From Myxococcota bacterium (GTDB lineage Bacteria > Myxococcota_A > Bradymonadia > UBA7976 > UBA1532): 64,000 nt of DNA. Where the stretch lies: the NCBI GenBank assembly GCA_023150895.1, contig JAKLJY010000004.1, forward strand, positions 43,605 to 107,604, in the 5' to 3' direction. This document shows positions 13,307 to 50,155 of the stretch, piece by piece. Position numbers and translations under genes: made by a program. Under the pieces are notes generated by a model. The model searched no databases and had not been told where the DNA came from. It saw only the letters and a program-made list of their open reading frames with translations. The stretch's first letter is position 1. The number at the start of each line of letters is the position of its first letter.

Positions 13307-13391
13307 GGGGCGGTAATGTAAACGCGGTGCACGCCGGGGGCTGCAAGAAAATGGTGGAAACGCGGGGCCCGCCGGCTACCCTGCGACCCGC

Positions 13392-28006: not shown

Positions 28007-28100
28007 GGACGCCTCCACGGCATGGCGCCGCGGGCGGCATCGTAGCAGGGCGACGCGGCGCTGGGAACCGACCGGGGCATCCTGTGTTAGAGTCCGCCCC

Positions 28101-31031: not shown

Positions 31032-31033
31032 GC

Positions 31034-31651
31034 ATGAACATGGAGACCGCGCCGCCCTCGCCCTCCGCACGCGCGACGCTGTTCTGGTCGCTGGCGCCCT
31101 TGGCGGTCTTCTACCTCGTCGAGAACGCGTATGGACTGACCGCCGCACTGATCGCGTCGATGGCCTTCACGCTCGGTGACCTGGCGTTCACCTGGTGGCG
31201 TCAACGCACACTGGACCGCGTCGCGCTCCTGACCGGCGGCCTCGTGCTGCTGCTCGGCGGACTCTCGCTCATCTCGGACGACGAGCGGTTCATGCTGTAC
31301 ACACCGGTCGTCGGCGATGCCCTCTTCTCCGGTCTCCTGGCCGGAAGCGTCATGCGTGGCCGACCGGTCCTGGTGGTGCTCGCCCTGAAGCAGGACCCGA
31401 CGCTCGTCGACGACGGGCCCCGCCGCGCATTTCTCGGCGGCATGACGCTGCGCCTCGCCGTCAACCTGGCGCTTCACGGCGTGGCGACGGCCCTCGCGGC
31501 GGGTGCGAGCCGCGAGACGTGGCTGTTCGTCTCCGGCCCGCTCCAGTACATCCAACTGGGGCTTCAGTTCGTCGTCGAGATCGTGTGGGGCCGGTACACG
31601 CTGCCGCCCGAGGAGCCGCCGCCCCCGGGCGATTCTCGCGACGATCGGTGA
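31034..31651 (+). CDS. inner-membrane protein, YciB/intracellular-septation-protein-A-like
   Basis: 5 TM helices. Pattern ..LAPLAVFYLVENAYG..FTWWRQRTLDRVALLTGGLVLLLGGLSLISDDERFM.. resembles the YciB family. Confidence 0.45.
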   Translation: MNMETAPPSPSARATLFWSLAPLAVFYLVENAYGLTAALIASMAFTLGDLAFTWWRQRTLDRVALLTGGLVLLLGGLSLISDDERFMLYTPVVGDALFSGLLAGSVMRGRPVLVVLALKQDPTLVDDGPRRAFLGGMTLRLAVNLALHGVATALAAGASRETWLFVSGPLQYIQLGLQFVVEIVWGRYTLPPEEPPPPGDSRDDR

Positions 31652-31749
31652 TCCGCCCCCCCTCGCCCGCCGGTGCGCGAGTGTGCGTTGCCGCAAACCG
31701 TTCCGCGTGGGCATACTGCGCCCGATCCTGCGAGGGGAGATCGCATCCG

Positions 31750-33819: not shown

Positions 33820-33821
33820 AA

Positions 33822-33836
33822 CGGGCGCGGGCCGTC
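33822..33836. terminator. candidate hairpin between convergent genes
   Basis: acggg-cgcgg-cccgt inverted repeat in the 15-nt gap between the lipoprotein stop (33819) and the rsmI stop (33835). Confidence 0.2.
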
Positions 33837-34710
33837 AGTCGTCCGAAGGCTCGCCAGCCTCCGGTGACGCACCGTGCCGCGCCGACAGGATGGCGCGATA
33901 GGCCGTGTCGCGGTCGACCCCGGTGCGCCGCACCAGCTCCTTCGCCGCGCGGGCGCCAGTGAACCCTTCCGCAAGGACCGCGCGGGCCGCGGATTCGACC
34001 GCCCCATCGTCGGGTGCCCCCTCCGGCGCAGCCCCCCCGACCAGGACGACCACCTCGCCGCGCACGACGCCGGGCGTTTTGGCCAGGTGCCCCAGCGTGC
34101 CGCGCTCGAAGGTCTCGTACATCTTGGTCAGCTCGCGGGCGATCACGGCCGGCCTCTCCGATCCGAGTACCGCCGCGGCCTCCTCGAGGAACGTCTCGAG
34201 ATCGTGGGGCGGCACGTAGAAGACCAACGTGTCCGGCGCGCCCGCGAAGGTCTCGAGCCAGGCCCTTCGGGCGTCTCGGCGAGCAGGCGGGAATCCGACG
34301 AATCGGAAACGATCCGTCGCGAGACCGGAAGCGCAGAGCGCGGCGATGGCGGCGCACGGGCCGGGGATGGGAACGACCGCCAGTCCCGCCTCGGCGACGG
34401 CCTTGACGACGGGGTAGCCGGGATCGCTGATGGCCGGGGTCCCGGCGTCCGAGACCAGGACGACCCGGCGCCCGGCCTGCACCCACTCGAGCACGCGCGC
34501 CGCAGTGCGGTCCTCGTTGTGGTCGTGCACCGCCACGAGAGTTGGACGGGGCAGGCCGAGCAGCTCGAGCAGCTGCGACGTCCGACGCGTGTCCTCGCAG
34601 GCGATGATCTCCGCCTCCCGCAGGCTGCGGAGCGCACGGAGGGTGATGTCCTCCAGGTTGCCGATGGGGACGGCGACGACGGACAGGCGGCCGCCCGTCG
34701 CCGCGTTCAC
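33835..34710 (-). CDS. rsmI: 16S rRNA (cytidine1402-2'-O)-methyltransferase
   Basis: RsmI signature (..LSVVAVPIGNLEDITLRALRSLREAEIIACEDTRRT..), tetrapyrrole-methylase fold. GTG start lies 1 nt after the stop of the giant gene (34712-34714), so it is probably co-transcribed. Confidence 0.85.
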   Translation of the reverse strand: MNAATGGRLSVVAVPIGNLEDITLRALRSLREAEIIACEDTRRTSQLLELLGLPRPTLVAVHDHNEDRTAARVLEWVQAGRRVVLVSDAGTPAISDPGYPVVKAVAEAGLAVVPIPGPCAAIAALCASGLATDRFRFVGFPPARRDARRAWLETFAGAPDTLVFYVPPHDLETFLEEAAAVLGSERPAVIARELTKMYETFERGTLGHLAKTPGVVRGEVVVLVGGAAPEGAPDDGAVESAARAVLAEGFTGARAAKELVRRTGVDRDTAYRAILSARHGASPEAGEPSDD

Positions 34711-34711: not shown

Positions 34712-37700
34712 TCAGCCAATCGCGAGCCCGAGGGCCTTGCGGAGCTTGAAGTAGTTCTCCGAGAGCCCGTACAGGACGAGTTCGCGGACGCGATCCTGCA
34801 CCGGTGCCTTGCTGAACTGACCGGGCTCATTCTTGATGCAACGAACGGCCGCGCCGAGGTCGTTGCTCAGGACGAATCCGAGTCGATTCGACGAGTGCTC
34901 GATCATCTCGAGCCACTTCGACAGGTTCAGGTGCTGCTGCTGGTTCTCGCTCATCTTGGCGATCAGCTTGCTGATCTCCTGGAGGTCCGCCGCCGGAATG
35001 CCGCGGAAGCTCTCGAGCAGGTCGTCGTCCTTGAACGGAACCTCGGCCGCCGGGTTCACGAGCTTCATCACCGTGTAGACGATGGTGAAGAGGCGTGCCT
35101 TGCGACGCTCGTACGTCGGATCGATGGTGGCCGTGTAGAAGTGCTGGCCCATCATCATCAGCTGTTTCGAGCAGATGAACGCCAGTTCCTGCATGGATCG
35201 ACCGCTGAGCACGTCGCCCCCGACCATCATCGCGGGCGGGTTGAGGTTCGCGGACAGAATCCCATTCCCCGCGTCGGGGATGCGGAAGACCTCGACGCGA
35301 TGCAGACGGGTGACCTGAGTGACGTAGTTCAGCACGTTGTTGAAGGGGGTCTGCTCGGTCGGTTCGACCACGTCCTTCTTCTTGTGCAGCTTGAGGTCCT
35401 TGTGCTGCTGCGCCATCAGCGGGACGGTGTACTGATACAGCCGCTGGAAGAACTGCGCGAGCAGCAGGCTGAGCTCGGGGTGGTAGATCAGGCCCCACTG
35501 CTCGTTGTCGAGGGGCTTGCGGGCCTGCGCCAGCGTCTTGGACCGGTACTTCTCGAAGAAGGCGCGCTCGTCGGCGTTGGCATGACCGAGGTACGAGAGG
35601 ACCTGGCAAACGCACCAAGCCTCATCGTAACGGCCGCTCTCCATGAAGAGGCGTCGGACCTGCTGGTAGCTCTCCACGTTGCGCGGGTTGAGCTCGATCA
35701 TCTTGTAGTGCTCGGCGATCGCCTTGTCGGGCTGCTCGTTGAGTTCGAACAGCTCTGCGACGATCGTGTGCACCTGCAGGTCTTCCGGCGACTTCGTCAG
35801 CGCGATCTTGTAGGCCTTGATGGCCTCATCGTACTTCTTCAGTCGCGTCCGGTTGATCTCGCCGAGACCCTTCGCCAGCGTGATGACCAGCTTGTCGTCG
35901 AGCTTGGACTCCATCGCCCGCTTGAGCATCTTGCGGTAGTAGCGGTCCTGCCGCTCGTAGTCCCGCTCGTTGGTCAGGATCTGGTCGATGGCCTGGAACG
36001 CCTTGAGCATCGCGGCGTCGGCGTCGAGCGCCTTGTCGAGCGTGCGGACGGCCAGGAAGTTGTCCTTCAGCTCGTCTCGCTGAATGACACCGATGGTGTA
36101 GTAGTACTTCGACTGCCGCGCGGGATCCCGCTCGAGCTCCGCGAGGCGCGTGAGGATCTCGACGGCTTCGTTCCACTGTCGGGCCTCCTGGTAGAGGTCG
36201 AGCAGCTTGCTCAGCACGAGGCGGCTGTCCGACTGGACCGTGAGGGCCTCTTTGTAGGCGTCGACGGCCTTCGGCACGTTGCGCAGGTGCTCGCGCAGGA
36301 TGTCGCCGATCGTCACGAGCGACTGGAATCGATCGTTGGCGTCGAGGTCCAGCGCCAGCAACTGCCGGCGGTGATGGATGACGTCCTCCCAGTCGCCCTG
36401 CTTCTCGTGGAGATCCACGACGGCGCGCAGCACGCCCTCGTTGCGGGGCTCGAGGTCCAGCGCCTTCTTGAAGAAGTCGAGCGCCTTGCGCCGTTCGCCG
36501 ACCTTCAGCTTGATCTGACCCTGTCGATAGAAGATCTCGACGACGTCCGCCTCGCTGAGGTTCTCGCGATGGTGGACGAGGATCGTCTGGTAGATCTTGA
36601 AGGCGCGGTCCCAGTCTTCGCGACGGAACAGCAGGTTGCCCATGCCCTGCAGGGTGGGCAGGTGGGTGCTGTCGAGCTCGTACGCGGCCTTGTAATGGGT
36701 CAGGGCCTTCTCGTCCTTGTGGAGCTGCTCCGCGACGAAACCGACCCGGTAGTTGAGCGTCTGCAGCTCTCGAACGTCGGCGCTGGTGTTCGTCTTGTGC
36801 TGGACGATCAGGTCGAGCAGAGGCTCAGCGCGCTCCCACCGACGATCCTCCCAGTACACCTCGACGAGCGGCACCGCCGCCTCGACGTTGTCGTGCATGT
36901 CCCGCGACTGCTCGTAGTAGTCGATGGCCGCGCCCCGATCGCCGAGGAACTTCTCGTAGACCTGACCAATCTCGAAGAGGCACTTCGCCTTCTCCGGGAA
37001 GCTCTTCGTCGCCGCCTCGATCATCTTGAGGGTCCGGACGACGTCGCCCCACTCCGCGCGCTGCTCGTGGACACCCTTGAGGGCCTGCAGGGCGGGGAGG
37101 TAGGCCGGATCGTGTTCGAGCGCGCTCTTGTACCAGCGCTCGGCCTGGTCCAGGTCGCCGACCTTCTCCTCGTAGACCTTGCCGACCCGGTACTGCCGAT
37201 CGAGGACCAGGGGGCGCTCGTTGAGCAGATGCGCTTCGCGGCTCAGCGCGTCGATGCAGTTGGGCCAGTCCTCGACCTGAGCGTAGAGCTCGCCGAGGGC
37301 GGTCAGCGTCGCGAGGTGGCGAGAATCGATCTCGAGGACGGGCGTGAGCGTCTCGATGGCCGCATAGGCATCCGCCAGCGGACCCCGGTAGAGCGCTGCA
37401 AGCTGCGTGTACGTCGCCACGCGCGCCCGATCGTCCGTCAGGGCCTCGAGGTGGAGCCGGTACACGTCCGCGAGGTCGTGCCAGAGGCCCGCATCGCGAT
37501 ACAAACGTTCCAGGGCCCGGACGGCCTGGACGTTGGCGGCGTCGACCATGAGCATCTTGCGATACGTGTCGATCGTCGACGTCCGGTCACCGAGCTCTTC
37601 CTCCTGGATGAGCGCGATGCGTGCATAGATCGCGAGCTGCTGGGTCGGCTCCGTCTTGACGTTGAGCATCATCTCGAAGACGTCGAGGAGATCGCGCCAA

Positions 37701-40700
37701 CGGTCCTGTCCCGTGTACAGCTTCTCGAGCGCGGTCATCGCGTCGAGGCAACGGTCGTCGACGGAGAGCGCCTGCCGGTATGCGTCGATGGCGCGCTCCG
37801 GATTCCCGAGGCGGCCTTCGTAGAGTTCACCGATGCGGAGGTGGTTTTCGACGATCTGTGCCGCGTCGTAGATCACCTGCGTCTGGCGAACCAGGACGTT
37901 GATGAGGTCCTGCCAGCGTTCGCGGACGGCATACAGGCGTTCGAGCGCCTGCAGCGTACCGAGTTCGGTGTCGTCAATCGCCTGAACCTGCCGCCAGGCG
38001 TCGATGGCGGCGTCGGGACGCTCGAGGCGCTCTTCGAGGATCCGGGCCATCCGCTCGAGCGCGGCCTTGCGCTCGTCGGGCTCCGTGGAGAGCTCGGCGC
38101 GACGCTGCAGCACCGTCACGACCTCGGGCCACTTGTTGTAGCGCTCGAGGAGATTCTGGAGCGCATCGAGGGCCTTGAGATTGTCGGGCTCGATGGCCAG
38201 AACGTACTGATAGTGCGTCCCGGCGTGCTCCGGCGTCTTCAGGTAGCGATCGTAGATGCCCGCGACCCGCAGATGCAGACCGACCGAGGCCGGGACGTGC
38301 CCCATCCCGTGCAGGACGTTCTCGTAGAGGTGGACGAGGTCGGACCACTTGTCCCCGAGCCCCGCAAGCCGCTCGAGATCCCCACCGAGACGTTCATCGT
38401 CCTTGATCTCTTCGAACGCGTTGGAAAGCACGAGGAACGCGTTGTCGACGCTGTCGAGACGGGTCTCGAAGACACCCGCCGTCCGCCGGTAGAGCTCCTC
38501 GCGGTCGAACGGATCCGTCGTCGTCTCGAGGCGCTGCAGCAGCAGGCCGACGAGCTCCTCCCACTGCATGTCGGCGGCGTACAACCGCTCGAGTTCCTGG
38601 GACGCGTCGAGGTTGGTCGGCTGCAGCTCGAGGATCTGAGCGTAGGCCCGCTTCGCGCCATCGGCCTCACCGATGCGCTTCTCCCACATCTCGGCGACGC
38701 TGAAGAGGATGCTGACCTTGTCGAACGCGTCGACGGTGATGTCGGCCTTGCGATCGAGGACCTCGACACACGCGCGCCAGTTCTCCGAAGCAGTGTGAAG
38801 CGCCTCGAGCGCATCGATGGCGTCTGCATCCTGGGGGGCGAGAGAGAGCACGCTCGACCACGCGCGGACGGCGTCCTCCGGGCTCTCGAGCGCGGTCTGG
38901 TAGAGTTCGCCGAGCTGACGGTAGAGGTCGACGCGCCGCGCGTCGCTCCCCGGCAGCAGGTCGAGCAGTCGGTGATCGGCGCGCGCGAGGTCGGCAAACT
39001 CCGCCGTGCGCTCGTGCAGGCCCCGAATGGCCCACAGGGCCGCTTCATGACCGGCGTCGCGGTCGAGGACCTTGTTCCAGTTCTCCAGGGCGTTGCGCTC
39101 GCGATCGAGGTAGTCGCCCCACACGCGACCGAGCTTCGAGAACAGCTCGATCTCGCGCTCGACACCGTTGTCCGGGAGGTTGACCTGACGGTCGCAGACG
39201 TCGACGAGCTCGCGCCAGCGCTCCTGCCCCTCGTAGAGGCCCTCGAGCGCGCGCAGTGCGGTCGGGTCCTCCCCTTCCAGATCGAGGACCTTGCTCCACA
39301 GATCGATGGCGTCGTCGGGACGCTGCAGCATCTGAGACGCGATGTCGGCCATCCGGGCGAAGAGGCGCGCCTTCTCCGCGTCGCGCTCGGCGACCTCGGA
39401 CTGCCGGTTCAGAACGTCGAAGAGCGGCTCCCACTCTTCCCGTGCCTGGTAGATCTGCTCGAGGCGGGCCAACGCACCGGCATGGTGCGGTTCCTGCTCC
39501 AGGATGCCCCGGTACTGTTCGACCGCGAGGTCGAGCTCGGTCAGCCACGTCTCGTAGACCTGTCCGAGCCGGTACATGAACGCGAGCAGCAGCGGCTCGT
39601 CGTAGGTGGCACCGATCTCCCGGCGCAGAACCTCGACGAGTTCCGCCCAGCGGTGCTGCTGCACGTACAGTTCGTCGAGACCGGTGAGCGCGGCGGCATC
39701 GACCGGGTCGATCTCCAGAATGTACCGGTACATCCGCTCGGCCGACTCGTCGTCCGAGAGCCGCGTGCGGTAAAGCACGGCCATCTCGTGCGCGAGGGAC
39801 TTCAGCAGCTCCGCGTCCTGCGTCCGGTGCATGCCCTCGGTGAACGTCCGGACGAGATCGCCGTAGCGTTCCGTCGCGGCCGCAAGCCGAGAGAGTTCCT
39901 TGCGGCCCGTCTCGTCCTCCGGCGTTTCCTTGAACGAGATCGCGTACCAGTCGAAGGCGCGCTCCGGCTCGGCGAGATGCTCGATGCAGAGTTCGGCGAG
40001 ACGGTGCAGGTGCCGCGTGCGGTCATCGCCCGGCTCTTTGAACGGAAGAAGCGCCTCGAGCACGCCGTGCAGGCGGATCCAGTCCTGGCGCTCCAGGTAC
40101 AGGGGCTCGAGGATCTCGCCGATCTGCGGGCGCTCGTGTCCCGCGTCGAAGAGGCGCACCAACGCGCCGACCGCGTCCGGTTGCTCCGCCTGCTCGACCA
40201 GCACGTCCTTGAACGTATTGATCGCCGTCGGGACGTCGTCGAGCGCCGTCTCGTAGAGGCTCCCCAGGCGGAGCAGCAGCGCGATCCGCTGCGGCACCTC
40301 CGTCGCCCCCTCGACCTCGACCCGGAGGATGTCGGCCAGATCGGCCCACATGCCCTCCTTCTGATAGAGGCGGTCGAGGGCGAGGATCGCCCCCTGATGG
40401 TCGGGCTCGACCTCGCGGACGCGGCGATAGCGCTCCACGGCATCGACGTTCGACCCGAGCTCTTCCTCGTAGATCCGGGCCACCCGGAGATACAGGTCGC
40501 GAGCAATGGCGTCCGTCTGCACGTGGCCGAGGAGCTGCTCGATCAGACCGGCGAGCCGGTCGAAAGCCCCGGAGGTCCGTGCGACGCGCTCGAGCGCGGC
40601 AAAGGCCTCGAGGTGAGCGCCATCCTCTTTCACCGCTTCCGCATAGGCATCGAACGCCTGATCGGAGTCGGCGAGCATGTCCTCGAACGCTGCGCCCACC

Positions 40701-43700
40701 TGCAGATGGAGCGCGGTCCGGGCGTCCACCTCCGAGGTGACCTCGAGCAGTGAGCGCCAGCCGGCGATCAGGCGATCCCAGGCCCCGGCCTTCTCCAGAA
40801 CGGGCTGGAGGACCGCCATCGCGGCCACCGACTCGCGGTCCGTGCGAATGAGTCCTTCGAGCGCCTGCAGGCTCGGCTCGTGCCCCGGCCACTGGGCCAG
40901 AATGTCGCGATACCCTTCGATGGCGGTCGGGACCTGCTCGAGCGCCGTCTCGTACAGGTTCGCGATCCGGAAGTGCAGCGCGACCTGCGCTTCGGGCTCG
41001 CTGACCACGGCGACTTCGCGAACGAGAATGCCGCGCAGCTCTTCCCACTTCTCGAGGCGGTGATAGAGGCTGTCGAGGCACTGCAGGGCCGTGAGGTCCT
41101 GCGCGTCCCAGCCGAGGACCGTCTGGTACGTCTCGACGGCCCGGGTCAGGTCGTCGAGTTCGCGGTCGTACGCCGCGCCGATGACGTAGTAGATGTCCTT
41201 CCGGGCTGCCAGGTCCTCGGTGAGTTCGGCCTTGCGGTGCAGGATCTCGAGCAGGTCCTCCCAGCGCGCGAGCGACAGGAAGATGCGCTCCAGAGCATCG
41301 AGCGCTTTGGCATCGACCGCATCGACCTCCAGGACGGCCCGGTAGATCTCCACCGCGCGGTGCGGATCGCTGAGCATCTCCTCGAAGATGGCGCTGACCC
41401 GGAAGAGGAGATCCTTCTTCGGGAACGCCTCCTCCGTCAGCTCGGCCTTCCGCAACAGGACAGCGACGAGTTCGTTCCACTGTTCCGTCTGGAAGTAGAT
41501 GTCCTCGAGGGCGGCAATGCACTCGAGGTCGGTGTCTTCCGCGGCGTAGGCGGCCTCGTAGTGGCGCCGTGCGCCGGCAAGGTCCCGCAGGTTCCCCAGT
41601 TGTACACGCGCAACACGCTTGTGAATATCGGTCGCGACCGCCGGCTCGGAGATGTCGTCGACGAGCCCTTCGTAGACCGCGACGAGCTCGCCCCAGATCT
41701 CCAGCGCCTCCGCAATCCGGGTCAGCTCCGCCAGCGTCCGGCCGTTGCCGGGCTCGACCGCGAAGGCCCGGGCATAGCTGCGGAACGCCTCGTCCGGTGC
41801 GCCGCCCCGGTTCTGATGGAGCTCGGCGATCCGATGGAGCAACTCCACCTGCCGCTCGGCGGTGTCGGCGTGCTCACGCTGGATCTCGTAGACACCGACC
41901 AGCTTCTCCCAATCGTCGCGGCCCCGGTAGATGGGCTCGAGAATGTCGGCGATCGTCGCCTGATACTCGGGCTCTCCCAGCAGCCGTTCGAGCGCCCCGA
42001 GGGCATCGGCGTTGTCCGGCGTCTGCGTCACCACCGTCCGATAGGTCTCGATGGCCTGCGCCGCGTTCCCGAGTTCGCCCTCCTGCAAGGCACCGAGGCG
42101 GACCTGCAGGCTGATCTTCTCGGCGTCGTCGGTCGCGAGGGCCAGCTGGCGTTCGATGACCTCGCCGAGCTCGGTGAACTGGCCGAGTGCCCCGTACAGA
42201 CGATCGAGTGCTCGGAGGGCCCGGACGTTGTGCTCGTCGGCCTCGAGGATCTCGCGGTACGTAACGATGGCCTCGTTCGGATCCTCGAGCATCTCCTCGA
42301 GGAGTTGACCGATCTGGAACTGCAGCGCTTCGCGGACGTCCGGGAGCTCCGTCAGCTCGAGCTTGCGCCGATAGATCGCGAGCAGCTCCGGCCACATCTG
42401 GGCCCGGGCGTACAGGCGTTCGAGGCTCTCGATCGACGTTCGGTTGTCCGCCTCGAGATTGAGCACCCGGGTGTGCGCATCGATGGCTCGGGGCACGTCG
42501 CCGAGCCGCTCCTCGTAGACGACGGCCAGGCGGGCGAGCAGTGCCCGGGCGAGCGCGTCGTCCTTCGCGTCGGGAGTGACCTCTTCGAGCAGCGCGGCGA
42601 AATCCTGGAACTTCTGACCGACCTCGGCGAGCTCCGAGAGCCGGCCCACCGCGACGTGACTCGACGGCACCTCGCGAAGAGCGCGAGCGAATGCGTCGAA
42701 CGCTCGGTCCACGTCCGCCGTCCGCGCGGTGTGCAAGGCACCAATCCGCTCGAGGAGCTCGAAGCGCTTGACGGTCTCCGCCGTGTCCTCGAGCTCGATT
42801 TCGAGCACTCGGACGAGGGCCTCCCATTCACCCTGATCGTGGTAGATCGGCTCGAGGATCTTGGCGACCGGACCGCGGAACTCGGGGTCGATCAACAAGC
42901 CTTCGAGGGCGCTGCGCGCCTCGGCGTGTGTCGGGTTGGCCTCGAGAATGTCCCGGAACGCACCGATGGCATCGGCCGTGCGACCGAGCGCGTGCAGCTC
43001 GATGAACCCGAGCTGAAGCTTGAGGGGCAGCGGGTCCCCTTCACCGGTCACGGCGATGAGCTGCAGTTCCCGCTGCAGGACGTCATGGAGTTCCTCGAAA
43101 CGCTCGCCCTGCTGGAAGAGGCGGTGCAGCGCCGCAAGGGCGTCACGGTCGCCCTCGTCCTCGGCGACGATCGCTCGGTACTTCTCGACGGCAGAGTCCG
43201 CGTCGTCGAGTTGCTCTTCGAAGATGACCCCCTGCTTTCGCAGCAGGGCCTTGCGCGCCTCGATCCCATCCGCGAGAGCGAGCTTGCGATCGATGACGCC
43301 GAGCAGGTCATGCCAGCTCGCGAGCCGGGTATACAGGCCCTCGACCGCGTCGAGCGCCACGAGATTCTCGGGTTCGATCGAAAGGGCGTCGTGGTAGCGG
43401 GCGAGCGCGTCGTGCGTCTGCCCCATGTTCTGATCGAGAATCCGGGCCAACGCCAGCGTGATGTGCAGCTGAGCGGCGGTATCACCGGCGGCGTTCGCGA
43501 GCGCCGAGACGAGGTCGTCGTGGACGGTGGACCACTGGTGCGTCAGTCCGCCGAGGCGTTCGAGCTCGCCCTGCACCTCGACGTCCGTCGGGTGTTCCTG
43601 GAGGGCGCGTCGAACCCACTCGAACGCGGAATCGGGATTGCGAAGGTGCTGCTCGTAGATGCGCGCGCTGCGCATCATCAGCTGGCGTCGCTCCGTCGGG

Positions 43701-46423
43701 TCGGTCTCGTGCTCGAGCAGCACGTCGAGCACCGTGGCGAGTTTGCGGTACTCGTGGGCGGCTTCGTAGATGGGCTCGAGCGCGCGTGCGCCGACGACGT
43801 TCCGCGGTTCGATCTGCAGAATGCGTTCCAGCGCACGGACGGCGCGGTCCTTCTGCTCGAGCCGGGCTTCGAAGATGGTCGCCGTCCGGAAAAGGAGGTC
43901 GATCTTCGTCGCATCGTCCTTCTGAACGCCGACCTGCCCGTCGAGGAGCCGGACGAGCTCGTCCCACTTCTCCCGGACGCCGAAGTATTCGGTCAGGGCG
44001 TCCCAATCGCCGAGCTCGATGAGCGCCTTCTTGAGGCTCTCGCCGGCGCGCCGGTGCTCGGGTTCGATCGAGATGAGCTTCTGCCAGACGGCCACGCATC
44101 CTTCGCGATCGGCGAGGCGATCCTGGAGGACCATGCCGGCTTTCTGCAGCAGGTCGACACGCTCGGCCACGTCGGACACGTTGTCGACGAGGGCACCGGC
44201 GGTCTCGACCATCTTCTCCCAGTGCTTCTCCGACTCGTAGAGCCCGACGAGGGCGCGAAGGGCGTCGATGTCGCCGGGTTGAATCGCGAGAACCTGCTCC
44301 CACAGTTCGAGCGAGATCGAGGGCCGCCGGATCTTCTTGGTGGCGTTGTCCGCAATCTCCTTGTACTTGGCGGCTCGCGCCGAAGGCTCCGTTTCCGTGT
44401 CGGCCAGCTGCCGCTGCACCGCGACGAGCTTCTCCCACTCGCGGCGCTTCTCATACATGTCCTGCAGGTTCTCGATCGCCGTCCGATTGCCGGGGTCGTC
44501 GCCGAGCACCGCTTCGTACGCCTTGATCGCCTCCGCCTGGTTCCGGAACTTGTCGAGATACAGGTGGGCGATCCGGAGGTTGAGTCCGATCCGCTCGTCC
44601 GTCTCGACGGCCCCATCGACCTGCTTCTGCAAGAGCGCGACGAGATCCGGCCAGCGGCGCATCGCCTCGTACTTGTCCGCGAGGACACGAACCGCCTCGC
44701 CGTCCGACGGATCGAGCTGGAGCACCTGCCCGTACAGGTTGACGACCATCGCGTCGAGATTGAGATGCTGCGTGTAGACCGCGATCAGGGTCTTGAGCGC
44801 CTCCACCTTGCGGGCCCGATCCGAGTCGGGAATCTCCTCGACCTCGAGCTTGAGGATCTCCACATAGGCGTTCCACTTCTCGCCGGCCCGGTAGAGGCGC
44901 GCGAGCGCCTGCCGCGCGTCGCGGTCGGTCTTGTCCGCGAGGTGGACCTGGCGCCAGAACTCCGTCGCCTTGTCGGGCTCACCCGCGCGCTCCTCGGCAA
45001 GGACCGCCATTCGACGGAGGGCGTCGGTGCGGTTCGCCGGCGTATCGCCGCCGGCGGCGTCCGTGAACATCTGCTGGATGTTGCGCCACTTGCCCGTCTC
45101 GATGAGCCGCTGGATCTGCCACTCGCGGGCGCCGTGGTCGTCGCCGGCGACCTTGGCGAGTTCGCGGAGCTTCAGATCGACGAGCTTCCCTTCGTCGAGG
45201 TGAAGGCCTCCGAAGAGAATGCGTTCGCCCTGCAGCGCGTGGGCCGCAGCCGGGAACTCGGCCGCGAGCGCCTCGAGCCCTTGGGCGATGGCCGCGGCCA
45301 CCTCCCTCGGCGCCTTGAGCTTTCGGGCAACGCGCGCGTAGACCCGAACGTCCCCGGGCTGCTCGCGTACCGCCGCCAGGTAGTTCGCGGCAAACTCCGG
45401 AAATGCCCCCGCCTCGGGGGCCATGACTTCGAGCGTCGCGACCGGATCACGACCGTCCGCGGCCCGAAGGCGTGCTGTGAGGGCTGCCACATCGACGGCC
45501 GGCGTGGGGGCTGCGGGCTGCGCCGCTTCGACCGCCGGCTCGGCCGCAGGCTCGCTCGCCGCTTCGACCACCGGCTCGGCCGCAGGCTCGCTCGCCGCTT
45601 CGACCACCGGCTCGGCCGCAGCCTCGCTCGCCGCTTCGACCACCGGCTCGGCCGCAGGCTCGCTCGCCGCTTCGCCTGCTGCGGGCCCTCCGAGTTCCTC
45701 GAGCTGTTGACGCATTTCAGCGTCATCGGGACGCAGGGCGAGGTAGCGCTCGAAACACTGCCGCGCCATGTCCGTCTGGTCGAGGTCGTACAGGAGCACG
45801 TTGCCGAGTTCCTGGAAGATCTCCGCCTGACGATCGGCGTCCTCCACCGACTGGAGTTCCAGGTCGAGGAGTTGTGCGACCATCTCCCAGTTGCCGACCT
45901 GCCGGTAGATTCGACGGGCCGCATACAGGGCGCGCAGGCACCGGTGGTCGGCCTGGAACGCCGCCTGGTAACAGACCATGGCGCGTTCCTGGTCGCCGAT
46001 CTTCTCCTCGAGCACCTCTCCGAGTTCGTAGATGAGTTCCGCCCGCGCACCGACATCTTCGGTGCGCTCGACCTCGGCCTCGCCGACCTGAACCCACCCT
46101 TCCCAGTCCTCGAGCTGCCGCAGAAGGACGCGCATGCGACCGAGCACGATGAGCGGCTCGGGATCGGCACCGAGCCCCGCGTTGTAGATCTCGATCGCTC
46201 GTCGGGCGTCGCCCAGATTGCGCTCGGCGACCTCGCCGGCACGGCGCAGGAAACCCGCAGCCCGACTCGGCTCTGCCGTGTTCTGGGCGAGGTGGACATA
46301 AAGATCCACCAGCGGGGCCCACTGCTCCTCGGACGTCAGCAACGCCTCGAGCTCACGGGCCGCCGCCTCGTTTCCCGGATCCTGGACCACCACATCGAAG
46401 AGCTCGCGAACACGCTCGTTCAT
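34712..46423 (-). CDS. agmK: giant cytoplasmic TPR-repeat protein, 3903 aa (AgmK/GltI-like, gliding-motility cluster)
   Basis: Uninterrupted 11.7-kb ORF, start at MNERVRELFD (ATG 46423, preceded by a GGAAAAAGG RBS-like stretch). No signal peptide. About 45 copies of a roughly 73-aa TPR-like double repeat. In-frame 36-bp x4 tandem repeat near the N-terminus. Non-TPR C-terminal about 330 aa (K/N/Y-rich). Sits at the gltI position of a G1-like gene order. The symbol is assigned by architecture and synteny only. Confidence 0.8.
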   Translation of the reverse strand: MNERVRELFDVVVQDPGNEAAARELEALLTSEEQWAPLVDLYVHLAQNTAEPSRAAGFLRRAGEVAERNLGDARRAIEIYNAGLGADPEPLIVLGRMRVLLRQLEDWEGWVQVGEAEVERTEDVGARAELIYELGEVLEEKIGDQERAMVCYQAAFQADHRCLRALYAARRIYRQVGNWEMVAQLLDLELQSVEDADRQAEIFQELGNVLLYDLDQTDMARQCFERYLALRPDDAEMRQQLEELGGPAAGEAASEPAAEPVVEAASEAAAEPVVEAASEPAAEPVVEAASEPAAEPAVEAAQPAAPTPAVDVAALTARLRAADGRDPVATLEVMAPEAGAFPEFAANYLAAVREQPGDVRVYARVARKLKAPREVAAAIAQGLEALAAEFPAAAHALQGERILFGGLHLDEGKLVDLKLRELAKVAGDDHGAREWQIQRLIETGKWRNIQQMFTDAAGGDTPANRTDALRRMAVLAEERAGEPDKATEFWRQVHLADKTDRDARQALARLYRAGEKWNAYVEILKLEVEEIPDSDRARKVEALKTLIAVYTQHLNLDAMVVNLYGQVLQLDPSDGEAVRVLADKYEAMRRWPDLVALLQKQVDGAVETDERIGLNLRIAHLYLDKFRNQAEAIKAYEAVLGDDPGNRTAIENLQDMYEKRREWEKLVAVQRQLADTETEPSARAAKYKEIADNATKKIRRPSISLELWEQVLAIQPGDIDALRALVGLYESEKHWEKMVETAGALVDNVSDVAERVDLLQKAGMVLQDRLADREGCVAVWQKLISIEPEHRRAGESLKKALIELGDWDALTEYFGVREKWDELVRLLDGQVGVQKDDATKIDLLFRTATIFEARLEQKDRAVRALERILQIEPRNVVGARALEPIYEAAHEYRKLATVLDVLLEHETDPTERRQLMMRSARIYEQHLRNPDSAFEWVRRALQEHPTDVEVQGELERLGGLTHQWSTVHDDLVSALANAAGDTAAQLHITLALARILDQNMGQTHDALARYHDALSIEPENLVALDAVEGLYTRLASWHDLLGVIDRKLALADGIEARKALLRKQGVIFEEQLDDADSAVEKYRAIVAEDEGDRDALAALHRLFQQGERFEELHDVLQRELQLIAVTGEGDPLPLKLQLGFIELHALGRTADAIGAFRDILEANPTHAEARSALEGLLIDPEFRGPVAKILEPIYHDQGEWEALVRVLEIELEDTAETVKRFELLERIGALHTARTADVDRAFDAFARALREVPSSHVAVGRLSELAEVGQKFQDFAALLEEVTPDAKDDALARALLARLAVVYEERLGDVPRAIDAHTRVLNLEADNRTSIESLERLYARAQMWPELLAIYRRKLELTELPDVREALQFQIGQLLEEMLEDPNEAIVTYREILEADEHNVRALRALDRLYGALGQFTELGEVIERQLALATDDAEKISLQVRLGALQEGELGNAAQAIETYRTVVTQTPDNADALGALERLLGEPEYQATIADILEPIYRGRDDWEKLVGVYEIQREHADTAERQVELLHRIAELHQNRGGAPDEAFRSYARAFAVEPGNGRTLAELTRIAEALEIWGELVAVYEGLVDDISEPAVATDIHKRVARVQLGNLRDLAGARRHYEAAYAAEDTDLECIAALEDIYFQTEQWNELVAVLLRKAELTEEAFPKKDLLFRVSAIFEEMLSDPHRAVEIYRAVLEVDAVDAKALDALERIFLSLARWEDLLEILHRKAELTEDLAARKDIYYVIGAAYDRELDDLTRAVETYQTVLGWDAQDLTALQCLDSLYHRLEKWEELRGILVREVAVVSEPEAQVALHFRIANLYETALEQVPTAIEGYRDILAQWPGHEPSLQALEGLIRTDRESVAAMAVLQPVLEKAGAWDRLIAGWRSLLEVTSEVDARTALHLQVGAAFEDMLADSDQAFDAYAEAVKEDGAHLEAFAALERVARTSGAFDRLAGLIEQLLGHVQTDAIARDLYLRVARIYEEELGSNVDAVERYRRVREVEPDHQGAILALDRLYQKEGMWADLADILRVEVEGATEVPQRIALLLRLGSLYETALDDVPTAINTFKDVLVEQAEQPDAVGALVRLFDAGHERPQIGEILEPLYLERQDWIRLHGVLEALLPFKEPGDDRTRHLHRLAELCIEHLAEPERAFDWYAISFKETPEDETGRKELSRLAAATERYGDLVRTFTEGMHRTQDAELLKSLAHEMAVLYRTRLSDDESAERMYRYILEIDPVDAAALTGLDELYVQQHRWAELVEVLRREIGATYDEPLLLAFMYRLGQVYETWLTELDLAVEQYRGILEQEPHHAGALARLEQIYQAREEWEPLFDVLNRQSEVAERDAEKARLFARMADIASQMLQRPDDAIDLWSKVLDLEGEDPTALRALEGLYEGQERWRELVDVCDRQVNLPDNGVEREIELFSKLGRVWGDYLDRERNALENWNKVLDRDAGHEAALWAIRGLHERTAEFADLARADHRLLDLLPGSDARRVDLYRQLGELYQTALESPEDAVRAWSSVLSLAPQDADAIDALEALHTASENWRACVEVLDRKADITVDAFDKVSILFSVAEMWEKRIGEADGAKRAYAQILELQPTNLDASQELERLYAADMQWEELVGLLLQRLETTTDPFDREELYRRTAGVFETRLDSVDNAFLVLSNAFEEIKDDERLGGDLERLAGLGDKWSDLVHLYENVLHGMGHVPASVGLHLRVAGIYDRYLKTPEHAGTHYQYVLAIEPDNLKALDALQNLLERYNKWPEVVTVLQRRAELSTEPDERKAALERMARILEERLERPDAAIDAWRQVQAIDDTELGTLQALERLYAVRERWQDLINVLVRQTQVIYDAAQIVENHLRIGELYEGRLGNPERAIDAYRQALSVDDRCLDAMTALEKLYTGQDRWRDLLDVFEMMLNVKTEPTQQLAIYARIALIQEEELGDRTSTIDTYRKMLMVDAANVQAVRALERLYRDAGLWHDLADVYRLHLEALTDDRARVATYTQLAALYRGPLADAYAAIETLTPVLEIDSRHLATLTALGELYAQVEDWPNCIDALSREAHLLNERPLVLDRQYRVGKVYEEKVGDLDQAERWYKSALEHDPAYLPALQALKGVHEQRAEWGDVVRTLKMIEAATKSFPEKAKCLFEIGQVYEKFLGDRGAAIDYYEQSRDMHDNVEAAVPLVEVYWEDRRWERAEPLLDLIVQHKTNTSADVRELQTLNYRVGFVAEQLHKDEKALTHYKAAYELDSTHLPTLQGMGNLLFRREDWDRAFKIYQTILVHHRENLSEADVVEIFYRQGQIKLKVGERRKALDFFKKALDLEPRNEGVLRAVVDLHEKQGDWEDVIHHRRQLLALDLDANDRFQSLVTIGDILREHLRNVPKAVDAYKEALTVQSDSRLVLSKLLDLYQEARQWNEAVEILTRLAELERDPARQSKYYYTIGVIQRDELKDNFLAVRTLDKALDADAAMLKAFQAIDQILTNERDYERQDRYYRKMLKRAMESKLDDKLVITLAKGLGEINRTRLKKYDEAIKAYKIALTKSPEDLQVHTIVAELFELNEQPDKAIAEHYKMIELNPRNVESYQQVRRLFMESGRYDEAWCVCQVLSYLGHANADERAFFEKYRSKTLAQARKPLDNEQWGLIYHPELSLLLAQFFQRLYQYTVPLMAQQHKDLKLHKKKDVVEPTEQTPFNNVLNYVTQVTRLHRVEVFRIPDAGNGILSANLNPPAMMVGGDVLSGRSMQELAFICSKQLMMMGQHFYTATIDPTYERRKARLFTIVYTVMKLVNPAAEVPFKDDDLLESFRGIPAADLQEISKLIAKMSENQQQHLNLSKWLEMIEHSSNRLGFVLSNDLGAAVRCIKNEPGQFSKAPVQDRVRELVLYGLSENYFKLRKALGLAIG
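45521..45676 (-). repeat. perfect 36-bp tandem repeat x4.3 (unit cgccgcttcgaccaccggctcggccgcaggctcgct on + strand), in-frame within the giant gene
   Basis: Four near-identical copies (one with a G to C variant, first copy cac to cgc) plus a partial fifth. They encode (AASEPAAEPVVE)n in the N-terminal region of the 3903-aa protein. Confidence 0.9.
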
Positions 46424-46579: not shown

Positions 46580-47452
46580 TCAGGGCGCCGACGGAGGCGT
46601 CGGGTTCTCTGCCCTGTATTCCAGCTTGGCGATCGTCTCTTCGGCCGTGCGAACCCGGAGGGGTTCCTCGTCGTTGGCACGTCGGGCCAGGAAGAGACGG
46701 AGGTGGTGGATCGCCTGCTCCGCGTTGTCGTTCTCGAAGTAGGCGATGCCGAGGTTGAACAGCGCGTTCGTGAACGTGGGCTTCAGCTTGATGGCCGCCT
46801 GGAACGCTGCAATCGCGTCGTCGTAGCGTTGCTGGTTCTTGTAGATGACGGCCAGGTCGTGATGAAGCTCCGGAAACTCCGGATTGTTCTCAATGCCGTT
46901 CTTGAAGACCTGAATCGCCTGCGCGTACTTCTCGAACCGCGCGTACAGGTTGCCGAGCGCCTGGTACGGCTGGCCGAAGCGGGGCTTCAGCTTGATGGCC
47001 TGGATGAACTCCTCCTGGGCCCGGTCGAACTGCGCCTGGTTCTGAAGCGCGACGCCGAGTTCGAAGTGGCTCTCTCCCATGGCCGGGTTCTTCTCGATGG
47101 CCTTGCTGAACGCGTTGATGGCCTGCGGCCAGCGCTTGAGACGACCGTGAACCTTCCCGAGGTGGTAGTGGTACTGGGCCACTTCGGGATTCAGCTCGAT
47201 CGCTTTCTCGAAGTCGCGAACCGCCTCTTCGGGCTGGGAGGCCCGTTCAGCCCGGAGCAACCCGCGCTGGTAGAATGCGGCGTCGTTCGTCGGGTCGATC
47301 GTGACCGCCTCGTTGAACTGCACGATGGCGCCGGCAGTGTCACCCGCCTTGAAAGTCCGAACCGCCTCGTTCACCAGCTTGTCGGACTTGTTGCGCTCCA
47401 GATTGCAGCCGAGCGCAACGACCGCGCACGTGGCGATCCACCATCGCTTCAT
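46580..47452 (-). CDS. TPR-repeat lipoprotein (occupies the gltH position of a G1-like cluster)
   Basis: Start at MKRWWIATCAVVALGCN (lipobox). About 7 canonical TPRs (..AFYQRGLLRAERASQPEEAVRDFEKAIELNP..). Confidence 0.7.
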   Translation of the reverse strand: MKRWWIATCAVVALGCNLERNKSDKLVNEAVRTFKAGDTAGAIVQFNEAVTIDPTNDAAFYQRGLLRAERASQPEEAVRDFEKAIELNPEVAQYHYHLGKVHGRLKRWPQAINAFSKAIEKNPAMGESHFELGVALQNQAQFDRAQEEFIQAIKLKPRFGQPYQALGNLYARFEKYAQAIQVFKNGIENNPEFPELHHDLAVIYKNQQRYDDAIAAFQAAIKLKPTFTNALFNLGIAYFENDNAEQAIHHLRLFLARRANDEEPLRVRTAEETIAKLEYRAENPTPPSAP

Positions 47453-47925
47453 CGACGACCTCCGACCTTCGGGCATTCGCCGGTTCTGGTAACAGAGGGG
47501 ATCGCTCAGGTCAAGCGAGGGGTGCGGGCGACCGGCGTTTCGAGTCGGAAGCCCCGCTTCCATGTTCTGCAAGGTGACTGGCGACCGAATCGTCTACCGA
47601 CGCTCGCGCCGGAAACCTGTCGCCCCGGCGGCCGCCAGCGCTTGCCGCGCGCATCGGACGCGCGCATCCGGTCGGTCGTCCCCCCCTCCGTCGCGCGCCG
47701 TTGCGAACGGAATGACGCTCGCTCGACCGTTGCAGGCGCACCGCCGTCGTCTCGACGCCAGTTGGGCGGCGGTTGTGGCGAAACGCCCCGCGCGGCGGGC
47801 CGCGGCCGGGGCGAAACAGCCACTGGACTGAAGACGGGAGCGCGAAACCGGTGGGATCGAGGGAACGACCGTGCGCCAGAAACAGGCGCGACGTCAGCCT
47901 GTGAAGGGAGCGGGAGACCGGAGGA

Positions 47926-49746
47926 CTAGTTCGAGGCCTTGAACACGAACGGGTATTTGACGGTCACGATGCCGCCGCCCTTCGGCTCCGGAAAGACCCA
48001 GCGCTTGATCTTGTCGACGAGGCAGCTCTCGACGTCGCGGTCTCCCATGGTCGACTCTTCGATGACGGCCGCAATCACGCTGCCATTGCCCGAAATGGTG
48101 AACTTGACCGTGACCTTGCCGGCAAGGTCGCGCTTCACGTTGAGCTGCTTCTCGTAGCAGTACTTGTACTCCGCCGCATGCTGACGAATGATCCGACGGA
48201 TGGTCTCCATGTCGAGCGCGCCGCTGACGATGGGCTTGCCGGGGATGACCTGCGGGATCTTGCCGGAGCGTTCCCCGTAGCGCGACACTCCGCGGCCGTA
48301 ACCCGAGCCGCCTTCGCCACCCCCGCGTCCCATCGTGCCGATGTTCCCGACACCGATGGAGGAATCGCTGAAGCCGCCGCCGCCACGACCGGCACCGGCA
48401 ACGCCGAGTCCGCCGTAACCAGCCGCTTCACCCGTACGGTCGCCGAACATGTTGCCGAGCGCGCTGACGGCGTCCTCGCCGAGCGCCCGCTCCTGCGTGC
48501 CCCACACCGCGCTCAGCTCGCCCTCGAGCTGGTTGAAGGCAGCATTGGCCGTGTTGAGGGCCTCCATCTTGGCGCGTTCCTTGGCAAGCTGGATCTTCTC
48601 GGTGTCGGGCGGACCTTTGATCGCGAACCGCTGGTTCTTCTGATCGGAGTCCTTCTTGCCCATCTTGCCTTCTTCGTCACGCGCCTTGGCGGCTGCCTCG
48701 CCCTCATCCTCCTTGAGGCCCTTGAAGAGGTCCTCGATCTTGTCTTCTTTCTCGGTCTCCGGCTTGAGCATGAACTCGACGTAGCGCTCCTGCACGTCGA
48801 AGGCGTCGAGTTCGAGCCGCTCTGCGTCTTCCGGGACGGAAAGGATGATGGCTGCGAAGAGCGCATGAAGCGCCGCCGCCGCAAGGAAGTAGCGGCCGAA
48901 GTGTCCGTCGAACGAGGAGAAGATGCCGACCGGCGGCAGCGGACGGACCGCCGCGACATGATTCACGAGGAACGTGGCGCCACCGAAGTGGAGGCGCGCG
49001 CGGGCCTTCGGCGGGAGTCGCAGCGCGTGGCTCCGGGTCACGCTGCTGCTCTTCCCCAGCTTGCCGGCGGCCTTCAACTCGTCGAGCGAGTACACCTGCC
49101 CGTCGAGCATGACGTCGCCCTGCACGCTTTCGGGCACGTTCACGACCATGTCCGCGCCGTTGGTCGAAGCGAGGGGGTACGGGTCTTCCGGTACGAGGTC
49201 ACCCCGGACGAAGTGATTCACCTCGTTCGCCTGACCGATCGTATAGGTGCCCTGCTCACGCAGATGGCTGATGTCGACCACGGCGTCGCCGAACATCGCG
49301 ACGACCTCGAGTGCGCGGCCGCCGTCCGAATCCGACTCGTCTTCCTCGAACGTCGGCGCGCGGCGCGCGACCTCCTGGGGACGAACGATGGCCGTCGCCA
49401 TCGCATTGACGTCCGGTCGTGCCGAGGCAGCGCTCTGGCCCGAGATCGTCACGACGATGCGGTGTCGGCCGAGCGTCAACGCGTCTCCGCTCCGGAGCCG
49501 CTGCTTGGTCACCGGTTGCCCGTTGACCAGCGTGCCTTTGGTGCTCCCGAGGTCGAGCACGACAACGTCGTCCGCACTGCCGACCTCGATGACGGCGTGC
49601 ATGCGCGAGACGTCGTCATCGTCGATCCGAAGGTGCGACGACGAGAGCTTTCCGATCTTGATCGTCGGCTCGGCGAGCACCTCGGTTCGCACGAGGCGAT
49701 CACCGTCGTAGATCTCGAACTGAATGGGAACTTTGGGCGTGTCCAT
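47926..49746 (-). CDS. FHA-domain / single-TM / Gly-rich / TonB-C-like protein (GltG/PglI(AgmV)-like)
   Basis: N-terminal FHA (..IGKLSSSHLRIDDDDVSRMHAVIEV...LDLGSTKGTLVNGQPV..). TM helix (YFLAAAALHALFAAIILSV). Gly-rich linker. C-terminal TonB_C-like fold (..GKVTVKFTISGNGSVIAAVIEEST..VKYPFVFK). Confidence 0.8.
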   Translation of the reverse strand: MDTPKVPIQFEIYDGDRLVRTEVLAEPTIKIGKLSSSHLRIDDDDVSRMHAVIEVGSADDVVVLDLGSTKGTLVNGQPVTKQRLRSGDALTLGRHRIVVTISGQSAASARPDVNAMATAIVRPQEVARRAPTFEEDESDSDGGRALEVVAMFGDAVVDISHLREQGTYTIGQANEVNHFVRGDLVPEDPYPLASTNGADMVVNVPESVQGDVMLDGQVYSLDELKAAGKLGKSSSVTRSHALRLPPKARARLHFGGATFLVNHVAAVRPLPPVGIFSSFDGHFGRYFLAAAALHALFAAIILSVPEDAERLELDAFDVQERYVEFMLKPETEKEDKIEDLFKGLKEDEGEAAAKARDEEGKMGKKDSDQKNQRFAIKGPPDTEKIQLAKERAKMEALNTANAAFNQLEGELSAVWGTQERALGEDAVSALGNMFGDRTGEAAGYGGLGVAGAGRGGGGFSDSSIGVGNIGTMGRGGGEGGSGYGRGVSRYGERSGKIPQVIPGKPIVSGALDMETIRRIIRQHAAEYKYCYEKQLNVKRDLAGKVTVKFTISGNGSVIAAVIEESTMGDRDVESCLVDKIKRWVFPEPKGGGIVTVKYPFVFKASN

Positions 49747-49754: not shown

Positions 49755-50039
49755 TCAGATGTCCTCGGCCGACTTGAGCATCTCCGGCACGAAAGATTCG
49801 CGAATGCGAATCAAACTGCTGTGCCGGGCCGCGCGGCGCGCGTCCAGGTATTCACCTTCAGGGCGGATGAACGAACCTTCCACCACGTCGTCCTCGAAGT
49901 CGTAGACGGTCTCCTTCTTGTAGACGACACCGGGATCATTCGGATCCTGGACCACGTCGTCTCCGGCCGCCTGGGCCATTGCCGAGGCCGGCGCGACGGC
50001 GACGATGGAGAGAAGAAGGACCACGAACTTCGAGCGCAT
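49755..50039 (-). CDS. small secreted protein, 94 aa (GltF-like position)
   Basis: Start at MRSKFVVLLLSIVAVAPASAMA with a strong SD (AAGGAG 6 nt upstream). Begins 8 nt upstream of the FHA gene start. Confidence 0.5.
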   Translation of the reverse strand: MRSKFVVLLLSIVAVAPASAMAQAAGDDVVQDPNDPGVVYKKETVYDFEDDVVEGSFIRPEGEYLDARRAARHSSLIRIRESFVPEMLKSAEDI

Positions 50040-50155
50040 GCAGAACTCCTTTCGGACGGCGGACACGCCGGCCGAGATGATAGCCGCGTTTGACGGAGGT
50101 GGAAAGCTCGCTCAACGGGTGAGACACGGGCCCGAGAGCGAAGTTCCCGAGAAAA

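Follow-up and report, generated by a model that had tools for sequence, protein, structure and literature searches.

A 3903-residue tetratricopeptide repeat protein from a Bradymonadia-like myxococcote as a probable GltI/AgmK-type gliding scaffold

A 64,000-nucleotide stretch of a Myxococcota genome (GenBank assembly GCA_023150895.1, contig JAKLJY010000004.1, positions 43,605 to 107,604; hereafter the window) carries an 11.7-kb gene for a giant protein of 3903 amino acids (aa) that is rich in tetratricopeptide repeats (TPRs). Its host is an uncultured freshwater Bradymonadia-like member of the Myxococcota: the closest genome match to the C-terminal tail domain of the giant, at 97% identity in that domain, is a Bradymonadia metagenome-assembled genome (MAG) from Lake Mendota. 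We identified the giant as GltI-like because of its gliding-motility gene context; it is probably the GltI/AgmK-type scaffold of an Agl-Glt-type envelope-spanning gliding machine, or 'bacterial focal adhesion'. Proteins of this kind are already known, and the fold of the tail and the breadth of its family are modest additions.

The gene is real. As originally predicted, it is a single uninterrupted open reading frame (ORF) on the minus strand (34712..46423 in window coordinates, used throughout unless a locus is named; stop codon at 34712-34714). It encodes 3903 aa from its ATG and contains no internal stop; an alternative start, the first GTG, extends it to 46492. The G+C content at third and second codon positions, 0.87 (GC3) and 0.38 (GC2), follows the pattern of the other probable genes in the window. 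Long ORFs on the plus strand over the same DNA were rejected as high-GC antisense artefacts. Neither a signal peptide nor a transmembrane (TM) segment was found in the giant. The maximum 19-residue Kyte-Doolittle-type hydropathy (KD19) is 1.2 and the N-terminus is not hydrophobic, in support of the predicted cytoplasmic location.

The giant is the last gene of a minus-strand row with the order gltC-gltD-gltE-gltF-gltG-(TPR lipoprotein)-giant. The upstream genes all encode exported TPR proteins or a membrane protein with a forkhead-associated (FHA) domain, and the exported ones have signal peptides. The gltC/agnA-like gene (54639..56204) matched the NCBIfam model gliding_GltC with an E value of 5.5e-125 (418 bits; cutoff, 450). 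At the gltD/agmU position, an exported protein of 1078 aa (51415..54651) has TPR and YbgF-like matches, a signal peptide and the size and position of GltD, which is 1162-1193 aa long in Myxococcus xanthus and Anaeromyxobacter. The gltE-like TPR lipoprotein (50156..51418) matched gliding_GltE over its full length (E 5.6e-46; 157 bits; cutoff, 225), and the small exported gltF/cglF-like protein (49755..50066), which has a signal peptide, matched gliding_CglF (E 1.1e-25; 89.5 bits; cutoff, 90). The gltG/pglI-like gene (47926..49746) encodes a cytoplasmic FHA domain, assigned using Pfam, a TM helix and an AgmX/PglI TonB_C-like tail; it matched gliding_GltG (E 1.9e-120; 403 bits; cutoff, 650) and passed the cutoff of myxo_SS_tail (114 bits; cutoff, 40). 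Directly upstream of the giant is a TPR lipoprotein of approximately 290 aa (46580..47572; probable ATG start at 47452) with the lipobox-type start MKRWWIATCAVVALGC. Lujinxingia litoralis and another Bradymonadia MAG (loci L083 and L084) share the glt row with a terminal giant. These relatives have a gene with an AgmX/PglI tail of the GltG/GltJ type between gltG and the TPR lipoprotein (L083, 7664-8479; L084, 7384-8844); at that place the window has only a gap of approximately 350 bp.

The order of the row, C-D-E-F-G...I, is that of the M. xanthus G1 cluster and of the Anaeromyxobacter glt locus (Adeh_3323..3311). In both, gltI/agmK encodes a giant TPR protein of 3822-4104 aa (MXAN_4863 and Adeh_3311), and the window giant resembles these proteins in size, in being cytoplasmic and TPR-rich, and in its large non-TPR tail. 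In the published description of GltI, too, the TPR array is followed by a large non-TPR C-terminal domain. Thus, three features of GltI were found: a TPR-rich protein of approximately 3800-4100 aa with neither signal peptide nor TM segment, a place downstream of gltD-E-F-G in a G1-type glt cluster, and a substantial non-TPR C-terminal domain. According to published work, M. xanthus GltI is cytosolic, is recruited to focal adhesions and is needed for the MglA and AglZ clusters; genetic work shows that gliding depends on the giant TPR protein of the M. xanthus cluster, which is located at focal adhesions. The published GltI model includes binding of the GltG FHA domain at multiple sites, and the FHA-bearing gltG of the window lies two genes upstream of the giant. 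GltI homologues have been reported across Myxococcales lineages, namely in Sorangium, Plesiocystis and Haliangium. The gliding function is known from M. xanthus GltI alone and would extend to the window protein by analogy.

Several observations weigh against this assignment or set the window giant apart from GltI. The window giant comes from a Bradymonadia-like myxococcote while GltI/AgmK comes from Myxococcia, and its likeness to MXAN_4863 in size, architecture and gene order was established by description rather than by alignment. No named Myxococcus protein was among the word-indexed protein-search matches for the tail, the family profile or the N-terminal 600 aa, which were short metagenomic fragments only. 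The GltC, GltE, GltF and GltG models are the best matches of their genes, and all score below the NCBI equivalog cutoffs. The genes gltJ, gltH, gltA/B/K and aglRQS are not in the window. Giants of the family in other lineages have no glt gene in their vicinity (L002, L085 and L086). The TPR-plus-tail module also occurs on Ser/Thr kinases and in a second giant in the window, and is thus not specific to gliding. Finally, gltJ (AgmX), which follows gltI in M. xanthus, was not found next to the giant, which is followed by rsmI. A search of the window ORFs for the AgmX/PglI tail matched gltG alone, and no gltJ-like gene was found downstream of the giants in 80 genome loci; adjacency of gltJ is a synteny feature of Myxococcia rather than of the GltI protein. 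The window also differs from Myxococcus between gltG and the giant, where the TPR lipoprotein occupies the place of gltH and no gltH was found.

The main rival reading is that the giant is a general cytoplasmic scaffold with a housekeeping or envelope role, one component of a conserved three-gene module (TPR lipoprotein, giant and rsmI), and that its adjacency to glt genes in Bradymonadia is secondary. We consider this unlikely. The gene downstream of the giant, rsmI (16S rRNA C1402 2'-O-methyltransferase; 33835..34710, minus strand), passed the cutoff of TIGR00096 (218 bits; cutoff, 168), and its GTG start comes right after the stop codon of the giant. The same gene directly follows the giant in 46 of the 80 loci, in Bradymonadia and other Myxococcota, down to 27% tail identity. 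Similarly, of the six loci that extend far enough upstream, five have a gene for a protein of about 300 aa (290-310 aa) directly before the giant. TPR proteins account for four of the five (in the relatives, L083 8793-9722, L084 8950-9843 and L085 9041-9916), and the remaining gene, L086 8973-9884, encodes 303 aa with no Pfam or NCBIfam match. In L085 and L086, this gene precedes the giant in the absence of neighbouring glt genes. Giants elsewhere lie beside YceG/RuvX or RNase Y, with RNase Y, a sigma-54 activator and others downstream in Polyangia. Moreover, the second giant of the window lies near PrmA, and the tail family is large and architecturally diverse. Against a general role stand the five glt-type genes directly upstream on the same strand in three Bradymonadia genomes and the gliding requirement and focal-adhesion localisation of the M. 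xanthus giant. The rsmI linkage, for its part, can be inherited gene order, as the cluster is embedded in a housekeeping block, with YraN/UPF0102, rplS, trmD, rimM and rpsP upstream of gltC (rpsP-rimM-trmD-rplS-yraN).

It is more improbable still that the cluster and its giant form a Glt/Nfs-like machine for surface transport rather than motility, for example of a polymer or a spore coat. Myxococcus has paralogous Glt-like clusters with other functions (Nfs, G4 and G5), which together with the sub-cutoff NCBIfam scores and the lack of adhesin or outer-membrane Glt genes in the window would fit such a machine. However, homologues of GltI, GltJ and GltK are missing from the Nfs cluster, and the presence of a GltI-type giant therefore favours the Glt type. 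The Glt models are also the best matches, the gene order is that of the Anaeromyxobacter glt locus, and Bradymonadales are thought, from published work, to prey using surface motility.

The GltI-like giant is, for most of its length, a regular TPR solenoid. Repeat detection had been named beforehand as the analysis on which the original prediction of a repeat periodicity could fall. Using BLOSUM62 autocorrelation, we found a dominant peak at a lag of 72 aa (z = 27.8 versus shuffles), with harmonics at 144 and 216 and side peaks at 89, 233 and 305 (= 72n+17). The periodicity was therefore found, with a period of 72 rather than the predicted 73 or so aa. An iterated hidden Markov model (HMM) of the unit matched the giant 51 times, 45 times near full length, in agreement with the approximately 45 divergent units expected. 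The consensus, Ll.R.g.iyE..Lgd.d.Ai..Yr.vL..dP.dl.Al.ALerLy...e.W..Lv.vL, corresponds to the motif proposed earlier, and the mean identity between units inside the giant is 21%. The matches comprise four units in aa 5-247, a gap at aa 248-467 and approximately 42 units in aa 468-3610; at five places in the array the spacing is 89 instead of 72 aa. On the gene, the N-terminal block of four 72-aa double-TPR units (aa 1-247; unit matches at aa 5-47, 58-119, 130-191 and 202-247) occupies 45683..46423. A non-repeat region without unit-HMM matches (aa 331-467) occupies 45023..45433. The main solenoid (aa 468-3599), delimited using the HMM, autocorrelation, structure prediction and structure search, occupies 35627..45022; all three are on the minus strand. 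In the last 400 or so aa of the main solenoid the TPRs are more canonical and less acidic.

Profile and structure searches identified the units as TPRs. Pfam and NCBIfam matches on the giant were almost only to TPR families (in Pfam, TPR_7 with E 5.4e-51, eight further TPR families and a few weak helical-repeat matches), and none lay past approximately aa 3610. An AlphaFold2 (AF2) model of aa 1672-2126, based on 12 homologous segments, is all-helical with a predicted local distance difference test (pLDDT) score of 93.1. In this model each 72-aa unit has four helices, forming two TPR-like hairpins as predicted, and the 89-aa units have a fifth helix. Using Foldseek, the model matched the TPR superhelices of OGT, CTR9, SKI3 and APC (probability 1.0; E down to 1.5e-10) as well as CTPR structures. 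Autocorrelation, unit HMM, AF2 and Foldseek thus agree on a very long solenoid of double-hairpin units, and the tandem helix-turn-helix motifs of about 34-36 aa, the TPR profile matches and the superhelix that mark a TPR protein were all found. Like the OGT TPR domain, CTR9 of Paf1C, SKI3 and the TPR subunits of APC/C, the giant has a continuous right-handed helix-turn-helix TPR array of the kind that serves as a multivalent binding platform. It differs from them in carrying approximately 90 TPR-like hairpins in one chain, versus 10-30, and in its strict two-TPR (72-aa) super-repeat with occasional five-helix units. Its superhelical geometry also appears to differ, since the global TM-scores are low (0.2-0.35).

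The solenoid ends in a globular domain (aa 3600-3903; 34715..35626, minus strand) that begins at DEAWCVCQVL and ends in the conserved ...LRKALGLAIG-COOH. A distinct non-TPR C-terminal domain had been predicted, and it is indeed separate, with no TPR match past approximately aa 3610, although its length is 304 and not 330 aa. The AF2 model, built with 24 relatives, has a pLDDT of 95.2 and a predicted TM-score (pTM) of 0.92. Together with the 1640 related clusters described below, this model indicates that the tail is well folded and conserved, as proposed. The predicted fold is alpha/beta and zincin-like (M48-like), and its core combines one helix with a three-stranded sheet and a pair of long helices; approximately half of the 304 residues lie in additional helices. 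The order of the core elements (helix, three strands, helix, helix) is, we take it, that of the minigluzincin core.

The best structural matches of the tail model are M48 zincin proteases, including BepA. M48 zincins (ZMPSTE24/Ste24p, HtpX and BepA) and minigluzincins (proabylysin and selecase) carry the HExxH motif, whereas the tail reads [R/Q/K]ELAF at the equivalent position. Specifically, among 143 family members the successive positions are R46 Q45 K17.., E77, L113, A104 and F133. Histidine is not among the five commonest residues at the first position and occurs once at the last. In addition, the family consensus has no conserved Glu in the helix that follows. We found no match of the tail to Peptidase_M48 or any other Pfam family at E <= 1 in 25 members, leaving the domain without a Pfam model, and none to PDB sequences, either with the single sequence or, at E <= 10, with the family profile. 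Thus, of the marks of an M48 or gluzincin protease, the tail has the zincin core fold and lacks both the motif and sequence similarity to Peptidase_M48 or solved M48 chains. Two points qualify the fold assignment: Ste24p ranked first in the Foldseek search of the PDB at an E value that is not significant (best E, 0.32), and the HExxH equivalence was read from topology rather than from a superposition. The loci compared contain only five HExxH ORFs, too few for an M48 profile-profile test.

Because the predicted fold is zincin-like and the inferred HExxH positions lack His in the 143 relatives, the tail is probably a dead protease, used for binding, whose metal site has been lost. This predicted protease-like fold without a metal-binding site is the new element of the finding. 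It is very improbable that the tail is instead an active M48-type metalloprotease on a substrate-recruiting TPR arm, as in BepA. The M48 proteases found by structure include BepA, which itself combines an M48 domain with TPRs, and a Glu is kept at the catalytic-Glu position in 77 of 143 relatives. However, an active-protease reading fails on the sequence motif, where the second His position is His in 1 and Phe in 133 of 143 relatives, and the absent following Glu and the absent Pfam and PDB sequence signals agree. The arrangement differs as well: BepA is periplasmic and has its TPRs C-terminal to the protease, whereas the tail of the giant is cytoplasmic and C-terminal to the TPRs. The invariant residues of the tail (domain numbering) are DxAWC, W250, R260, D268, S301, Y304 and R308. 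These residues could be targeted by mutation.

The giant is conserved as a whole. In ten independent assemblies, the orthologs are collinear, almost gapless (approximately 400 of 400 positions aligned per block) and of the same length. Their identity to the giant falls from 94% to 33% in the body and from 97% to 35% in the tail, the two tracking each other. Orthologous units are 55-94% identical, versus 21% between units of one protein. The lowest conservation was found in aa 331-467, with identities from 82% down to 20%, below the body in each comparison; together with the acidic linker (aa 248-330) preceding it, this is the least conserved part between orthologs. Giants at greater distance (32-60% identity) still line up collinearly, at comparable absolute positions and through the five-helix 89-aa units as well, and the array is therefore ancient, fixed in length and conserved position by position. 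The ratio of nonsynonymous to synonymous substitution rates (dN/dS, omega) was compared between repeats and C-terminus, as suggested at the outset. In the closest pair the body has an omega of 0.048, versus 0.028 in the final TPRs and 0.027 in the tail; the next pair has 0.133 (body) and 0.061 (tail). Past these two pairs dN/dS is unreliable, with dS saturated, at approximately 0.8-1.0. Judging from these ratios, the whole giant is under strong purifying selection. The tail, originally predicted to be strongly constrained, is not uniquely so: the roughly twofold advantage of the tail in omega vanishes at distance, as in L084, where the identity is 55-62% in the body and 54% in the tail.

Repetitive proteins are a known risk in metagenome assemblies, and collapse of repeats had been raised as a worry, but the probability that the ORF is a collapsed or chimeric artefact is practically nil: no result here points that way, the gene has no long or near-identical DNA repeats, its units share just 21% identity, same-length collinear orthologs with almost no indels come from at least ten independent assemblies, and giants account for 36 of the best 150 representatives of the family (median length, 3857 aa).

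The search for the tail across genomes, also suggested beforehand, revealed a large family. An exhaustive phmmer search of 1.84 billion representatives yielded 1640 clusters of tail-domain relatives at E <= 1e-3 and 130 at E <= 1e-30. Among the best 150 representatives, the domain lies within 10 residues of the protein end in 141 of 142 and is mostly preceded by 72-aa units. The 36 giants have a median of 37 units; 25 representatives are of 1500-2999 aa and 47 are shorter than 700 aa, of which 25 (proteins of 300-500 aa) have no 72-aa unit. A candidate of 4957 aa with 18 matched stretches (P0117) was discarded as an artefact of low complexity. Of five proteins sampled from a class of approximately 1775 aa, four begin with a Ser/Thr kinase domain (P0101, P0156, P0127 and P0087); these have a Pkinase domain at aa 98-360, approximately 12 72-aa units and a C-terminal tail domain. 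These Myxococcota kinases share with the giant the repeat unit and the tail domain at the extreme C-terminus, and differ from it in the Pkinase domain, in having only about 12 units and in the lack of linked glt genes in the one locus examined (L087). The TPR-plus-tail module thus caps kinases and other scaffolds too. The genome loci of the family come from Bradymonadia, Polyangia, Nannocystaceae, Labilithrix and unclassified MAGs labelled Myxococcota or Myxococcales; they were found using a nine-sequence tail pattern biased to DEAWC-type relatives. The 72-aa unit structure, the zincin-like tail fold and the wider tail family are not described in the published GltI work compared.

Three members of the family are noted for their surroundings or structure. 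The distant paralog in the window (4772..13306, minus strand; 2844 aa) has approximately 24 unit-HMM matches; its last 300 or so aa match the tail HMM with E 2e-19 and contain the motifs LRFQFARALEGMRDHH and NRTAFVLTGDLGRAV. Its neighbours are a PilZ protein, DUF192, PrmA and a 1117-aa MshEN/HEAT protein. A short member, P0006 (L001 7102-8601), adjoins a 976-aa TPR protein, a Band_7 protein and a BatD-like protein. In one MAG (locus L088), the giant appears to be split into adjacent ORFs of 2347 and 1826 aa (935-7978 and 8001-13481), the result of a frameshift, an assembly error or a genuine split.

If the giant is the GltI-type scaffold, the solenoid would be a multivalent platform. In this mechanism, which borrows from the M. 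xanthus GltI work, specific units would bind the FHA domain of GltG and possibly GltJ, and one giant could gather several inner-membrane motor or transducer units. The platform would connect these units to the polarity and cytoskeleton module of AglZ, MglA and MreB, again as suggested by the M. xanthus work. We further suggest that an array whose units are conserved position by position and whose length is fixed may act as a ruler or address-coded scaffold, a reading that suits these two properties better than a generic sticky repeat does. For its part, the tail may serve as an interaction domain: as a dead protease with a retained peptide-binding groove, it would dock a partner or cap and terminate the solenoid.

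A wider proposal, which we offer tentatively and regard as doubtful, is that the tail represents a hitherto unrecognised, Myxococcota-wide superfamily of M48-like 'pseudo-zincins' lacking the metal site, which would always end 72-aa double-TPR scaffolds (GltI giants, kinase fusions and the second giant, besides short forms without TPR units) and would act as a clamp that docks an extended peptide from a common partner. If so, the partner would be a cytoskeletal, polarity or membrane protein, and the tail would be the missing anchor of the cytoplasmic platform of the focal adhesions. The kinase fusions and the phosphothreonine-binding FHA domain of GltG would then hint at phospho-regulated assembly of the scaffold. 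No part of the myxobacterial gliding machine is less well understood than GltI, and the cytoplasmic platform is not resolved in the 2025 structural model. In the Bradymonadia ortholog set, conservation of each of the approximately 45 units at its own position in an array of fixed length argues for an address-coded ruler or scaffold. The finding leaves the category of the protein unchanged and should be useful to specialists rather than surprising.

The DNA of the giant gene contains a single array, 4.3 copies of a 36-bp unit with 97% matching (45521-45674), encoding the 12-aa repeat AAEPVVEAASEP. The remaining direct repeats are at most 54 nt long and 60-90% identical to the reference copy, so the prediction of no exact repeats other than one 36-bp array was accurate. 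The array lies in the Ala/Glu/Pro-rich low-complexity linker (45434..45682, minus strand), which is acidic and probably flexible. In length and sequence, the linker is hypervariable among orthologs that are otherwise 80-97% identical, and it is much longer in Lujinxingia. This variability is consistent with repeat slippage in a disordered spacer.

The base composition changes toward the 3' end of the gene. The predicted dip in G+C content was found (0.62 versus 0.66-0.68); rather than being restricted to the tail, it spans the last 700 or so aa, including the canonical TPRs of aa 3201-3599. All of it comes from the first two codon positions, with GC3 steady at 0.90-0.92, and it thus reflects amino-acid composition, with a very acidic, Ala-rich body giving way to an end richer in Lys, Asn, Phe, Met and Ser. 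The dip had been taken as a sign of special constraint on the tail; as a composition effect common to the last canonical TPRs, it is not such a sign. Foreign origin of the low-GC end was rejected, as GC3 there stays at 0.90. Of the three residues said to be enriched in the tail, Lys (6.2 versus 3.0% in the body) and Asn (4.9 versus 1.8%) are, and Tyr is not (3.6 versus 3.4%).

Two further features of the window were noted. The genes downstream of the giant (26621-34710) are syntenic with those of L084 (21991-27946): RsmI, IspA, a PD40/Tricorn-like protein of approximately 950-1020 aa and a sigma-54 response regulator. Near the start of the window, two plus-strand ORFs without a Pfam match (32-790 and 1949-4177) contain HExxH motifs (HELGHALG and HELAHAF) and may encode unannotated metalloproteases.

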